Below are positions 32,501-35,500 of a DNA stretch of 55,279 bases, piece after piece. Made by a program: the position numbers. The stretch's first letter is position 1; each line of letters starts with the position of its first letter. The stretch comes from Myxococcota bacterium (GTDB lineage: Bacteria > Myxococcota_A > Bradymonadia > UBA7976 > UBA1532), in contig JAYZEG010000004.1 of NCBI GenBank assembly GCA_036337435.1, positions 1 to 55,279 of the forward strand. The letters are read 5' to 3'.

Positions 32501-35500
32501 GCAGCCCCCTTGCCAGCCTTGCATTGGCTGGCTGCGTCAGGAGCGGCCATAAGCGTGTGGGGAAGAACCATCAGAGCCATAGAAACTAGGAAAGGTAATC
32601 GTCTTTTTTGATTTTTTATCCTCATCAAAGGCCCCTTTATTCAACCTGTCTTGCGTGAGCATCACAGCATTATCGCTGCCTATACGTCCGCATTGGAGTA
32701 TCATTCACAAAAAAATAAAACAATTAACAGTCGTGCTGTCATTCTTGGCGCTGAAACGAGATTAATCAGGTTTGTCTCTGCCAAGTCCAATATCGGTTTA
32801 GATCACCTTCATCGCCAATTCGCATCGCCGGGCCAAGATCGAGATCTAATCCGCATCCAACATCTTTGAGTAGACGTTTTTCTTCCTCTCTTGAAACCCA
32901 GTGGCAATAACGTGGTGTGTCCTGGGTGCCAGCCCATCCCAACAAATAGTCTCCCGCTTCCAGGGAGTTTGTTTCCGCGTCTGTGAGGTGCCGCTGCGTA
33001 GCCCATGGGATGATTTTTTTTTGCCATTTTTCGTGAGCACCGAAATCCCACAAACTGATGCAGAGTAATCCGCCAGGTCGAAGATGTTGAGCGGCCCAAT
33101 TGAGGAGCCTCAGACGTCGCTGGTAGCCGTAGATATGGTGCATGACACCGAACATAACAACCCAGTCGTAAGACCTATCCACTCTGAGGGGGGCCTCAAT
33201 TTGTTCAGATATCACGTCCGACCATGACCACTCGGACCAGCGGGTAGGGAAGCTCAGTGTACGTCGCTGGGCCACCTCAAGCAGGGAGCTACATCGTTCG
33301 AGACCGTCAAACTGCTCAATGCCCAACTGTCGTTCTTTGCACCAATGAGTTTCCATGAATGCGCTGAGTCGACCGTTACCGCACCCAAGGTCGAGAATCC
33401 GAAGCGGACGTTCTGGCAGAGAGTCGAGTGCCGCGTGCCAGCCGGTCCAGCCGTGTGCTCGGGTTTTGCTGAAATGGTCGGCGAAACGATCATAGAAACG
33501 CCGGTTAATGTCATCTAAGACCTGCGCTAAAGCCATCTTTGGTGTATGCTCCTCCACCATCTGCACACAATGAGAGATGCGCGATGAACCAGAATTACTG
33601 GAGCCGATTCGAATACGACCCGATTCAAGACGAGTCTTGCCTCGTTCCGTTGATCCGCTCCATCCTGGATACGCCACCCCAAGACTATACAGCCTGGCGC
33701 CGGTTGTTGCGCCAATATCCCAAGCCAAGCGGTGGATTTTTCTCCAAGACTGAAATCATTGCAGGTTTTCGCGAATTAAGCGACCGGCAGGTTTGGGGTG
33801 TTTCAGAAAAAGAGTTTATTCATCTTGTGAAGATGAAACCAATGCGCACACAGAGTGGTGTGGCACCGGTGACAGTACTGACAAAACCGTACCCATGTCC
33901 TGGTCAATGTATTTTCTGCCCAAACGATGTTCGGATGCCCAAAAGTTACTTGTCAGATGAGCCGGGAGCACAACGCGCTATGCTCAATCGCTTTGACCCT
34001 TATGCTCAGACATGGAACCGGTTGCTTGCGTTTCATCGCATGGGCCATGGGGTTGAAAAAGTCGAACTGATCATTCTTGGTGGGACATGGAGCTCCTACC
34101 CTAAAGATTATCAGATTTACTTCATCGCCCGTTGTTTTGAGGCTTGCAATGATTTTGACACCGCGACTCGGCCACAAGCCTATTACCCCGATGAACAGCT
34201 GCATGAGGATTTCTTAGACTTGCCCGTCTTGGTAGAAGAGAGCCCCGCCGAGGGTGAAGCCGTTAATGCCTATAACAAAGCGGTCAGTCGTCATTTGCGT
34301 CTGAAGTTAGATGGCCGTCTCGTTGCGGAGCATGAGGCTATCCACTGGCAACGTCTCGATGAAGCTCACCGCGTCAACGAAGATGCGAAATGCCGCATCG
34401 TTGGTTTAGTGATAGAAACGCGACCAGATGAAATTACACGGGATGAAGTCCTCCACATTCGACGTCTTGGCGCAACAAAGGTTCAATTGGGCGTCCAATC
34501 CATGTCGGACGAGATACTCCAGTTGAATCGACGGGGTCACGACGTGGCGAAGAGTCGCGACGCGGTCAATCAACTGCGCCTTGCTGGATTCAAAATTCAC
34601 GCACATTGGATGGCGAACTTGTTTGGGGCAACGGTGGAATCCGATATTGCTGATTTTCAGAAATTATTTGAGGATCCAGCGATACGACCAGATGAACTCA
34701 AGCTCTATCCATGTTCGCTAATCCCACGAACCGAATTAATGAGCCACTTTGCTGCGGGAAATTACGTTCCATACACCCGGGACGAGTTGCTGGACGTCTT
34801 GTGCGCGACGATGCCATCAGCACCGATTTATTGCCGTTTGTCACGGGTGATTAGAGACATTCCAGCAAGTGATATTCACGACGGTAATCAGGAGTCTAAC
34901 TTTCGAGAAGTCGCTGAACGCGCAATTAAGGAGCGTGGACTTAAGCTCAAAGAGATTCGAGCCCGCGAGGTAAAGCTAAAGGTCGTCGATGATGACGCCG
35001 TCGAGTTTCGTACATTTGAATATGAAACGGCAGTCACAAAAGAATTCTTTCTATCCTATGAAGCCGGTGATGCGCTCTTGGGCTTTTGTCGCCTCTCCCT
35101 ACCGACGGCGGCAGCCATAACCGATGAACTCATCGGTGCTGCGATGATCAGAGAAGTCCACGTATATGGGCAGAGTCTGAAAATTGGGCAAGAGAGCAAA
35201 CGCGCTGCACAACATCGTGGCCTCGGTCGACGTCTTGTTGAACACGCAGCTAGACTCGCTGCTCAGAACGGCTATGGGAGTTTGGCTGTGATTTCTGCAA
35301 TCGGCACTCGATACTATTACCGTCGTCTTGGATTTGTCGATGGAGAGCTCTATTTGCATAGGTCGCTGAAGCAACCAGATGACTCATAAAATTCGGATGC
35401 CTTGAGCTCATAGAGATAGATCGGCGTACGATACAGATCCGCAAGGGTCTCAGTTGTCTTGGGCTGAAAGCCTGGCAACCGAAATGTATGCGTGATGACC

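Follow-up and report, generated by a model that had tools for sequence, protein, structure and literature searches.

An Elp3 gene paired with a Trm9-like methyltransferase gene as a predicted route to mcm5s2U at the wobble uridine of Myxococcota without MnmE and MnmG

The xm5 side chain of the wobble uridine is treated as a domain marker, Bacteria being taken to make (c)mnm5 with MnmEG, and Eukarya and some Archaea (m)cm5 with Elp3 or Elongator plus Trm9. The stretch of DNA analysed here (the window, 55,279 nucleotides) comes from a marine bacterium of the Myxococcota and holds an Elp3 gene beside a methyltransferase gene, in an order in whose genomes neither MnmE nor MnmG was found. It raises the question whether a bacterial lineage may modify U34 by the second route in place of the first. 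The genome is a draft (87% complete), and the absences reported below therefore rest on order-wide counts.

The preliminary description had placed two divergent genes in the window, and both open reading frames were found where it put them (Table 1). The Elp3 frame is open from 33539 to 35389 on the forward strand, the ATG at 33584 giving 601 aa and an alternative TTG at 33539 giving 616 aa. On the reverse strand, the methyltransferase frame is open from 32766 to 33728, with the ATG at 33536 giving 256 aa and an alternative ATG at 33560 that adds MVEEHTPK. A scan of positions 32500-36200 for sigma-70-like sites was uninformative (2 sites against 3.5 expected, and 0 between the two genes). Pieces of both genes were present in RNA contigs from 3 libraries of 3 studies (95-99% identity), a weak hint that both are expressed.

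Table 1. Positions in the window of the gene pair and of sites recognised in the two products.
Feature	Position	Strand	Basis
Elp3 gene, 601 aa, radical-SAM and C-terminal GNAT/KAT domain	33584..35389	+	TIGR01211, Pfam, PDB matches DmcElp3 5l7j and MinElp3 6iaz
Radical-SAM cluster motif CPGQCIFC (Cys105, Cys109, Cys112)	33896..33919	+	aligns to PCPGKCIYCP of DmcElp3
64-residue insertion (residues 193-256) between two blocks common to solved Elp3 structures	34160..34351	+	phmmer
Site of the CxCxxC zinc triad of DmcElp3/MinElp3, here ERGLKLKEIRAREVKLK, 0 cysteines	34931..34981	+	alignment
KAT-domain acetyl-CoA-binding motif QHRGLGRRL (residues 543-551)	35210..35236	+	aligns to QHRGLGRKL of DmcElp3
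Divergent intergenic region between the two genes, 47 bp	33537..33583		sequence coordinates
Predicted Trm9-family class I SAM methyltransferase gene, 256 aa	32766..33536	-	family profile, AF2 model, Elp3 co-occurrence
SAM-binding motif I DLGCGNG (residues 49-55)	33372..33392	-	aligns to DIGCGNG of Trm9
Predicted cm5U-carboxylate pocket: HH (133-134), W163, W201, RYCH (209-212)	32901..33140	-	Trm9 alignment

The claim of a full-length Elp3 was borne out. The protein matched TIGR01211 with 463.2 bits (cut-off 350) over residues 75-593, with 462.6 bits in a six-frame search, and Pfam assigned Radical_SAM, Radical_SAM_C and Acetyltransf_1 (the last at 508-584). Its best PDB match was DmcElp3 of Dehalococcoides mccartyi (5l7j, E 1.3e-92), and MinElp3 (6iaz) matched with E 9e-90. 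The [4Fe-4S] cysteine triad (105, 109, 112) is conserved in all 21 homologues printed, as is the QH.G.G core of the GNAT/KAT domain, which carries the Q/RxxGxG motif of the family.

The present Elp3 nevertheless departs in form from the characterised DmcElp3: it is longer, contains an insertion, has no zinc cysteines and comes with a Trm9-like partner, which the short form lacks. DmcElp3, the only bacterial Elp3 studied biochemically and structurally, shares the radical-SAM and KAT motifs, but in the description consulted (part of PMC6367351) it has 459 aa, no N-terminal extension and intact zinc cysteines. The present protein has 84 residues ahead of the DmcElp3-aligned core (occupancy 0.89-0.98 among homologues); they are not basic (11 K+R and 11 D+E), and the same part of PMC6367351 describes an extended basic N-terminus that binds tRNA in the archaeal/eukaryotic type. 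When aligned to DmcElp3 by phmmer, residues 85-190 and 258-585 were matched and residues 193-256 were not; across 99 bacterial homologues the latter stretch has an occupancy of 0.77 and a column identity of 0.31. At the zinc site, typical of bacterial/archaeal-type Elp3, ‘kCRCIRCRE’ of DmcElp3 and ‘CRCIRCREV’ of MinElp3 stand against ‘lkEIRAREV’ here, and in the alignment the CxCxxC triad is missing from the present protein and from 93 of the 99 bacterial homologues.

The methyltransferase had been proposed to be a Trm9-like partner from its linkage to Elp3, a reading that now also has profile homology and conserved active-site residues behind it. Pfam gave Methyltransf_23/12/25/11, no NCBIfam model was over its cut-off, and phmmer with the single sequence against PDB sequences found no Trm9, only generic methyltransferases at E>=0.006. 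The AF2 model (pLDDT 91) placed Trm9 12th in a Foldseek search of the PDB (TM by target 0.68), a rank that does not discriminate because at least 500 class I methyltransferases score alike. In the ESM Atlas the look-alikes of the protein were all clusters under the name ‘class I SAM-dependent methyltransferase’ and did not help to assign a family. A profile built from 35 Elp3-adjacent methyltransferase homologues and searched against the PDB gave 283 matches, and the first was Trm9 of the Yarrowia lipolytica Trm9-Trm112 complex (5cm2_Z; 69.9 bits, E 1.8e-18, profile positions 26-227). The next match reached 51.1 bits (E 1e-12) over the Rossmann core only, a lead of six orders of magnitude for Trm9 as the top whole-length match among solved structures. 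The JGI annotation uses the name TRM9 for 13 of the family's 120 best members.

Mutation of any of eight residues of yeast Trm9 (R29, D72, H116, W145, W168, R241, Y243 and N271) abolishes its function (PMC4678810), H116, W145, W168 and R241 being among the essential ones. These residues were mapped by the family-profile alignment and the Yl/Sc numbering of that paper, and six of the eight are kept: R29 as R26, D72 as E80 (the acidic SAM-binding residue, aligned to Yl D83), H116 as H134, W145 as W163, W168 as W201, and R241 as R209. Five of the six are invariant in the 35 homologues, including R26, H134, W163 and R209, and position 201 holds an aromatic residue, W or F, in the homologues printed; D49, C52 and G53 of motif I are likewise invariant. 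The predicted pocket aligns to H126/H127, W156, W179 and R192-Y193-Y194-H195 of Y. lipolytica Trm9. The two other yeast residues were not recovered: Y243 is replaced by C211, a cysteine near-invariant in the bacterial family, and N271 falls outside the aligned stretch, its likely equivalent being N247 (conserved in at least 90%). Together with the association with Elp3, motif I, the acidic residue, the whole-length match and the pocket support the identification of the protein as a Trm9 homologue with a predicted Trm9 role.

That the pair is kept together in the Elp3-bearing genomes of the order held on re-examination: the methyltransferase adjoins Elp3 on the opposite strand in 5/5 of them, and full-length matches to it are confined to these five. 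The Elp3-methyltransferase pair is a widespread module of several bacterial phyla, far wider than five genomes. A methyltransferase homologue lies upstream of and divergent from Elp3 in 36 of 80 bacterial loci from several phyla (in 7 of the 80 the upstream DNA is too short for a verdict), with an estimated gap below 200 bp in 32 of the 36, and 4 of 5 genomes without an adjacent copy have one elsewhere. Among 401 Myxococcota genomes it was found in 58 of 61 with Elp3 and in 0 of 340 without; among 201 Chloroflexota genomes in 22/22 with the long form of Elp3, 0/16 with the short, high-scoring DmcElp3-like form, and 0/163 without Elp3. Elp3 was found without the methyltransferase in the three remaining Myxococcota, in the 16 Chloroflexota that have the short form, and in a single genome of Dojkabacteria. 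After masking of shadow ORFs inside Elp3, no third conserved neighbour was seen in 103 loci, only clade-specific synteny (in 17 Chloroflexota loci and in 12 loci that are apparently mostly from Myxococcota). In the literature searched, which did not extend to subscription papers and supplements, we found no description of a bacterial Elp3-Trm9 pair or of its exclusion of MnmEG.

The reported loss of MnmG and MnmE from the order stood when both were searched for again (0/31 genomes each). MnmG was over the cut-off in none of the 31 genomes, 15 of which are at least 90% complete, and its best match in the genome studied was 40.1 bits (cut-off 524.85), whereas 9 of 14 control genomes were positive. 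Among the controls, Corynebacterium glutamicum was one in which MnmG was not found. For MnmE, none of the 31 genomes had a match at E<=1e-30 or over the cut-off, the best match in the genome studied being 99 bits (cut-off 252.6) over the G-domain only. In families f3-f8, the rest of the class, 55 of 58 genomes of the phylum sample had MnmG, in line with the earlier figure of 79/82 for the other Bradymonadia. The term ‘near-universal’ for MnmG is wrong for these phyla, though, as the protein was not found in 175 of the 401 Myxococcota and 106 of the 201 Chloroflexota.

Where Elp3 is present, MnmG was never found. Genomes with Elp3 had MnmG in 0/61 cases in Myxococcota, against 226/340 of those without Elp3 (56% of the 401 overall), and in 0/38 cases in Chloroflexota, against 95/163 (47% of the 201 overall); with 0/10 in genomes of other phyla reached through Elp3 loci, this makes 0/109 Elp3-bearing genomes. 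For Myxococcota the two genome lists were compared by hand and share no family code; related genomes are not independent, and the exclusion there may go back to few ancient events. Replacement of MnmEG by Elp3 is not obligatory, because many genomes have neither, namely 114/401 Myxococcota, 68/201 Chloroflexota and 26/31 of the order, the last as the preliminary description had cautioned.

Elp3 itself is less rare in bacteria than had been assumed. It had been said to be described only for Dehalococcoides, and the section consulted of a review (PMC7663514) speaks of one bacterial clade; the species-level genome collection held at least 597 loci of Elp3 relatives, and Elp3 was present in 61/401 Myxococcota and 38/201 Chloroflexota genomes sampled. 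The count for the order was the same as before, with Elp3 over the cut-off in 5/31 genomes, three of this genus (G000, G025, G026) and two of one other (G028, G029). In a tree of 99 bacterial Elp3 sequences (without archaeal ones), the present Elp3 fell within a supported clade of Myxococcota(+Acidobacteriota), so that the label ‘archaeal/eukaryote-type’ is misleading. The tree tracks taxonomy, and Elp3 therefore looks old in the phylum, not a recent import. In that tree both genera of the order that have Elp3 fall into a single clade (support 100). This points to repeated losses of the pair among the remaining genera, none followed by a regain of MnmEG.

Eukaryotic Trm9 requires Trm112. No match to Trm112 (PF03966, a model of only 40 positions) was found in the genome studied, nor was it over the cut-off in any of four Elp3-bearing genomes of the order (21.4 bits against a cut-off of 22 in G026); one Chloroflexota chromosome exceeded it with 23.4 bits. 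The Trm9 of Haloferax volcanii also requires Trm112 in vivo, according to the part of PMC6144793 consulted. The genome studied does have MnmA, as claimed earlier (328.7 bits, cut-off 236.95). No match to CmoA (TIGR00740) was found in it, and for CmoB (TIGR00452) the best score was 36.1 bits (cut-off 275); cmo5U would therefore not be at hand as an alternative carboxyl substrate. Its tRNA census counted 29 tRNA genes, with tRNA-Glu(UUC) and tRNA-Lys(UUU) not among them, and the substrate set can therefore not be defined from the draft.

From these data we propose, with a probability of about 0.7, that the two divergent genes form a two-enzyme module that takes C5 of U34 through cm5U to mcm5U, a side chain of eukaryotic or archaeal style, in this lineage without MnmE-MnmG, and that MnmA adds s2. 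As its family and motifs suggest, Elp3 would draw on the [4Fe-4S]/SAM radical domain, and on acetyl-CoA held in the KAT domain, to carboxymethylate U34 to cm5U, and would act alone like the archaeal Elp3. The methyltransferase would then methylate the carboxylate of cm5U with SAM as the donor, giving mcm5U, a step suggested by the homology to Trm9, the pocket residues and the strict co-occurrence, and one for which it apparently needs no Trm112. MnmA, by its presence, would thiolate position 2 on tRNA-Gln and, if they occur in the full genome, on the tRNAs for Glu and Lys, yielding mcm5s2U. The module would thus occupy the place of the MnmEG-made (c)mnm5 of most bacteria. Even for Dehalococcoides, the part of the review cited above (PMC7663514) reports no direct evidence of xcm5U34.

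Elp3 might make cm5U34 while the methyltransferase acts elsewhere in the pathway, on another atom or derivative, with a product other than mcm5U, e.g., an ncm5U-like or undescribed base. The near-invariant cysteine in place of the yeast-essential Y243, the failure to find Trm112 in the genome studied and in four Elp3-bearing genomes of the order, and an identity to Trm9 too low for single-sequence detection would fit this, as would the diversion of cm5U to other products in H. volcanii and yeast without Trm9 (in part of PMC6144793); but Sc R29, H116, R241, W145 and W168, through which Trm9 is proposed to bind the carboxylate and the uracil ring, are kept here and no other whole-length PDB match comes close to Trm9, and we regard such a role as quite unlikely. 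A different doubt concerns cause and effect. MnmEG may have been lost for other reasons in whole clades that can do without a modified C5, with the pair as an ancient, non-essential addition that some of them have by chance retained. In favour of this stand the frequency of genomes with neither system in the order and in both phyla, the repeated loss of the pair implied by the single Elp3 clade without a return of MnmEG, and a control such as C. glutamicum without MnmG. Independence of the two systems would, however, predict some overlap, and there was none in 109 Elp3-bearing genomes, despite MnmG being present in about half of each phylum sample; the exclusion also repeats in separate phyla, which makes this explanation unlikely.

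Two further possibilities leave mcm5U aside altogether. In Escherichia coli, CmoM methyl-esterifies cmo5U, which is the other wobble uridine of bacteria with a carboxyl group, and this is the same kind of chemistry (a carboxyl methyl ester on the C5 side chain of U34), and the methyltransferase could be a CmoM-like enzyme that merely lies beside Elp3; with CmoA and CmoB not found in the 87% complete genome, and with the gene confined to Elp3-bearing genomes (58/58 in Myxococcota, 22/22 in Chloroflexota), this is hardly credible. Elp3 has also long been discussed as a protein acetyltransferase, and the Pfam matches of the methyltransferase are generic, as one might expect if Elp3 were an acetyltransferase or radical enzyme for proteins or another RNA, and if the methyltransferase worked on a protein or small molecule. 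We hold this to be very improbable, since the exclusion with a tRNA-U34 enzyme and the Trm9-type pocket would be left unexplained, and since tRNAs trigger acetyl-CoA hydrolysis by bacterial and archaeal Elp3, whereas histone or tubulin peptides and other nucleic acids do not (according to the part of PMC6367351 consulted).

Under the preferred reading, an Elp3-Trm9 module for mcm5U34, the pair stands closest to DmcElp3 and to three known systems. It shares its two catalytic families with eukaryotic Elongator and Trm9-Trm112 or ALKBH8-TRMT112 (cm5U to mcm5U and mcm5s2U), and eukaryotic Elp3 resembles the present one in having residues N-terminal to the core and no zinc cysteine triad (part of PMC6367351). 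The eukaryotic system differs in its Trm112 partner and in the tyrosine of Trm9 (Y243) where a cysteine stands here, in its thiolation by Ncs2/Ncs6-Urm1 instead of, as predicted here, the bacterial MnmA, and in an Elp3 without the 64-residue insertion. It also has Elp1, 2, 4, 5 and 6, which are not expected in the present bacterium and for which no search was made. The archaeal system also combines a stand-alone Elp3 with a Trm9 homologue, their genes clustering in Sulfolobus solfataricus, and Trm9-Trm112 of H. volcanii makes mcm5U (parts of PMC5372719 and PMC6144793); it differs from the present one in the dependence on Trm112 and in the CxCxxC triad, and here, in a bacterium, the pair fills in for MnmEG. 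MnmE-MnmG (with MnmC or MnmL/MnmM; cmnm5U, nm5U, mnm5(s2)U) would act on the same C5 of U34, presumably on the same tRNAs and with the same thiolation by MnmA, but they are unrelated enzymes (a GTPase and an FAD/folate enzyme) that make an aminomethyl-based side chain.

According to a review (PMC5372719), the Trm112-dependent methyltransferases are without bacterial homologues. By the present counts this does not seem to hold: an Elp3-Trm9 pair, never accompanied by MnmG, is carried by an appreciable part of at least two large phyla of bacteria and by members of others. A broader proposal, to which we give about even odds, is that the long-form Elp3 and a Trm112-independent Trm9 homologue make up a self-contained system of two genes, the chief bacterial alternative to MnmEG for xm5U34, of ancient origin and inherited vertically in Myxococcota, Chloroflexota, Patescibacteria and Acidobacteriota, strictly exclusive of MnmEG and leading to mcm5s2U, a wobble base of the eukaryotic type. 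The genomes with neither system raise the question of how split codon boxes are decoded in them. According to the part of PMC3025547 consulted, the anticodon nuclease PrrC favours mnm5s2U most, s2U less and mcm5s2U least, and yeast killer toxins need mcm5s2U; speculatively, a switch of the side chain would therefore alter the set of tRNA-cutting toxins that can harm the cell. If the chemistry is confirmed, the pair would offer a simple two-enzyme model for cm5U and mcm5U with neither the Elongator scaffold nor Trm112, would show Trm9 to function in the absence of its ‘obligate’ activator, and would bear on the origin of the eukaryotic pathway.

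The preliminary description placed an Elp3 gene beside a divergent methyltransferase gene in a lineage without MnmE and MnmG, the usual bacterial enzymes acting on C5 of U34, and this observation is confirmed by the open reading frames of the window together with order-wide counts of MnmG, MnmE and Elp3. In this genome, the top match to the MnmG model reached 40.1 bits (cut-off 524.85), MnmE searches returned G-domain matches only (top 99 bits vs. 252.6), and the U34 thiolation enzyme MnmA is present (328.7 bits). Because the assembly is 87% complete, the absences of MnmE and MnmG lean on the 31 genomes of the order UBA7976: MnmG was over the cut-off in none of them (15 are ≥90% complete; 9 of 14 control genomes were positive), and MnmE at E ≤ 1e-30 was likewise found in none. 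Elp3 was over its cut-off in five, from two genera of two families, and 26 have neither Elp3 nor MnmG. A weak match to the MnmG model (27-42 bits, model positions 292-388 only) was seen at G000:C32:18491-18751 of this genome and its counterparts, in 30 of the 31 genomes of the order; the underlying ORF is conserved, mostly 420-630 aa long, and is not MnmG.

Open reading frames at and near the Elp3 locus of the window
Feature	Position	Strand	Remarks
Methyltransferase ORF, 256 aa	32766-33536	-	divergent from Elp3, 47 bp apart
Elp3, frame open	33539-35389	+	601 aa from ATG at 33584
193-aa ORF	35350-35931	-	N-terminal hydrophobic stretch; weak class I methyltransferase matches, all under cut-off
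585-aa ORF	38315-40072	-	CPMNCAFC, a radical-SAM-like cysteine motif, seen in translation

The Elp3 of the window matches NCBIfam TIGR01211 with 463.2 bits (cut-off 350; residues 75-593) and carries the Pfam domains Radical_SAM, Radical_SAM_C and Acetyltransf_1. Among PDB sequences, its top match was the Dehalococcoides mccartyi enzyme (DmcElp3, 5l7j; E 1.3e-92), followed by archaeal MinElp3 (6iaz; E about 1e-89) and then by mammalian Elongator Elp3 chains (8ptx, 8avg) and a chain of 6qk7 (E 5e-79 to 7e-73). Both the cysteine motif of the radical-SAM domain, CPGQCIFC (C105/C109/C112), and the motif that binds acetyl-CoA, QHRGLGRRL (543-551), align with their counterparts in the solved enzymes. 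DmcElp3 is presented by Lin et al. (PMC6367351) as a rare bacterial example without the extended N-terminus that Elp3 has in archaea and eukaryotes, whereas the window Elp3 has 84 residues ahead of the Dmc-aligned core (this stretch is not basic, with 11 K+R and 11 D+E) and a 64-residue insertion at 193-256. Furthermore, where DmcElp3 and MinElp3 read CRCIRCRE, the window Elp3 reads LKEIRAREV, and the zinc cysteine triad is missing from 93 of 99 aligned bacterial Elp3 homologues. The window Elp3 is thus a different form from the studied DmcElp3.

For the divergent gene, Pfam gave only generic class I methyltransferase matches and no NCBIfam model was over its cut-off; a single-sequence search against the PDB did not reach Trm9. 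When 35 ORFs adjoining Elp3 in other bacteria were aligned, 15 columns were invariant, located in an N-terminal FY...F..TR...W.GW, motif I (LDxGCGNGR), FGVxHH, a lone W, GDxLL.W and RYCH. The profile of this alignment retrieved as its first PDB sequence 5cm2_Z (E 1.8e-18, 69.9 bits, profile positions 26-227), the Trm9 chain of the Yarrowia lipolytica Trm9-Trm112 structure; the runner-up (E 9.8e-13) covered the Rossmann core only. Through this alignment we transferred the yeast Trm9 mutagenesis of Letoquart et al. (PMC4678810, their Table 2) to the window protein, Yarrowia numbering being the 5cm2_Z chain index + 35 (verified on R40, H126/H127, W156, W179 and R192). Six of the eight yeast residues that give zymocin resistance when mutated are conserved: R29 (R26 in the window protein), D72 (the acidic E80), H116 (H134), W145 (W163), W168 (W201) and R241 (R209). 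Essential Y243 corresponds to C211, a cysteine near-invariant in the bacterial family, and essential N271 lies past the end of the aligned stretch, its likely equivalent being N247. In the assignment of PMC4678810, R29, H116 and R241 hold the cm5U carboxylate, W145 stacks on the uracil ring and W168 is thought to stack on the nucleotide neighbouring U34. An AF2 model of the window protein (pLDDT 91.1) ranked Trm9 only 12th in Foldseek (TM by target 0.68), not separable from other class I methyltransferases. Automated annotation, which is independent, agrees in part: among the best 120 members of the family, 13 are named “tRNA (uracil-5-)-methyltransferase TRM9” by JGI, and in the NCBI annotation they are class I SAM-dependent methyltransferases. 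By its family profile and the residues aligned through it, the window protein is a homologue of Trm9.

The two genes recur widely as a module. A survey with one genome per species returned at least 599 stretches, at least 597 of them encoding an Elp3 relative, and the best 80 of these loci came from Chloroflexota (mostly Anaerolineae), Patescibacteria, Myxococcota, Acidobacteriota and others. A methyltransferase homologue lies upstream of Elp3 in 36 of the best 80 (seven could not be judged, having <300 upstream bases), on the opposite strand every time, at an estimated distance of <200 bp in 32 and of 1-2.5 kb in four; no third conserved gene was found around the Elp3 loci. The Aggregatilineales locus L083 has its Trm9-like match inside a 574-aa ORF (2752-4476, minus strand) that is 1.5 kb away from Elp3 and may represent a fusion to a further domain, and in locus L054 the frame of the homologue is broken, with only a 31-aa ORF around the match start. 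The 193-aa ORF of the window runs towards Elp3 and shares with it the final 40 nt of the Elp3 gene (best NCBIfam match an archaeal protein-lysine methyltransferase, 31.6 bits vs. 200); its homologues were found only next to Elp3 within the genus (loci L007, L010, L013 and L009), so that it stands outside the module.

Co-occurrence was counted in genome samples with E ≤ 1e-30 for the Trm9-like family. Within the order, full-length matches (>235 bits) are confined to the five Elp3 genomes and other matches reach at most 59 bits, except for a partial one in G020, a 70% complete genome of a third genus, where the methyltransferase is represented by its C-terminal half (124 bits; G020:C67:8687-9097, locus L093), cut by the contig end at 9145; the Elp3 of that genus may lie on unassembled DNA. 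Among 401 Myxococcota genomes (lists matched by hand), 61 have Elp3, 58 the Trm9-like family, 226 MnmG, and 114 neither Elp3 nor MnmG. All 58 Trm9-like genomes have Elp3 (three Elp3 genomes have no methyltransferase), all 226 MnmG genomes are without Elp3, and the Elp3 and MnmG lists have no family code in common. The 201 Chloroflexota genomes comprise 38 with Elp3, 22 with the Trm9-like family, 95 with MnmG, none of which has Elp3 (two of them, G459 and G566, are flagged unpublished and were counted in the MnmG tally only), and 68 with neither Elp3 nor MnmG. Ten genomes picked as Elp3-bearing and reached via their Elp3 loci (Verrucomicrobia, Acidobacteriota, Spirochaetaceae, Patescibacteria, Dojkabacteria, Bacteroidetes and Chloroflexota; two complete chromosomes included) have no MnmG; of the five without an adjacent methyltransferase, four encode it elsewhere, the exception being a 0.7-Mb Dojkabacteria genome. 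The exclusion between Elp3 and MnmG may reflect a few ancient events within each phylum, and since many relatives have neither, compensation is not obligatory.

Score and length of the open frame sort the Elp3s of Chloroflexota into two clearly separate classes, a short form (16 sequences, ≥550 bits, open frames ≤518 aa, each from a genome of 1.4-2.4 Mb) and a long form (22 sequences, ≤524 bits, open frames ≥545 aa). The Trm9-like family is present in all 22 long-form genomes and in none of the 16 short-form genomes, and the short, high-scoring Elp3s are probably of the Dehalococcoides type. A quick maximum likelihood tree of 99 bacterial Elp3s (LG+G4, SH-aLRT, bacterial sequences only and no outgroup) grouped the two genera of the order (support 100) within a clade of Myxococcota and Acidobacteriota (99); a separate clade (100) held the Chloroflexota, and the majority of Patescibacteria fell outside both clades, a few being nearer to them. 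Because of this placement the Elp3 gene looks old in the phylum, and repeated loss is the better explanation for its scattered occurrence within the order (2 of 18 genera, perhaps 3).

Bacterial Elp3 is described as confined to one clade in the review PMC7663514, which also notes that xcm5U34 lacks direct demonstration even for Dehalococcoides, and a single sentence in PMC13315578 mentions “numerous bacteria”. According to PMC5372719, Sulfolobus solfataricus has an Elp3-Trm9 cluster, and homologues of Trm112-dependent methyltransferases were undetected in bacterial genomes. In our full-text literature search, neither a bacterial pairing of Elp3 with Trm9 nor its exclusion of MnmEG was found described. 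Trm112 is needed by eukaryotic Trm9 (as given in PMC4678810) and by Haloferax volcanii Trm9 (as given in PMC6144793). The Trm112 model PF03966 had no match in this genome and was over the cut-off in none of the four Elp3-bearing genomes of the order searched, one of which, 100% complete, reached 21.4 bits (cut-off 22); a match of 23.4 bits was seen in one chromosome from Chloroflexota. The bacterial enzyme might therefore work alone, a suggestion that is not firm because the PF03966 model is short.

In the proposed pathway, Elp3 would make cm5U34, the Trm9 homologue would esterify it to mcm5U, and MnmA would thiolate the Gln tRNA, plus the Glu and Lys tRNAs if encoded. The 29 tRNA genes of the draft genome include Gln-UUG, two copies of Arg-UCU, Leu-UAA and Sec-UCA, and lack Glu-UUC and Lys-UUU. 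CmoA and CmoB were sought in this genome and neither was found, therefore cmo5U offers no alternative carboxyl substrate. The tRNA-Sec(UCA) gene, detected by the tRNA scan, is a possible substrate, because the wobble U of eukaryotic tRNA-Sec carries mcm5U, formed by Elongator and ALKBH8. Contigs from three metatranscriptome libraries of seawater, produced in three studies, contain pieces of both genes with 95-99% identity. Given possible DNA carry-over, this hints only weakly at expression. Near-identical DNA to 32700-35450 (99% in the pieces compared) is present in contigs of marine metagenome run X2, and by word share the same stretch is also represented in seawater and marine runs belonging to several studies.

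Counting against the reading of an Elp3 with a Trm9-like partner are the cysteine at the Y243 position, the lack of a detected Trm112 and the Elp3 holders without the methyltransferase. The profile match to Trm9, the six of eight residues and the co-occurrence in 58 of the 61 Elp3-bearing Myxococcota support this reading and widen it beyond what the preliminary description had proposed. The Elp3-Trm9 pair is real and is predicted to be a new variant, in bacteria, of a pathway already known, one that is probably general.
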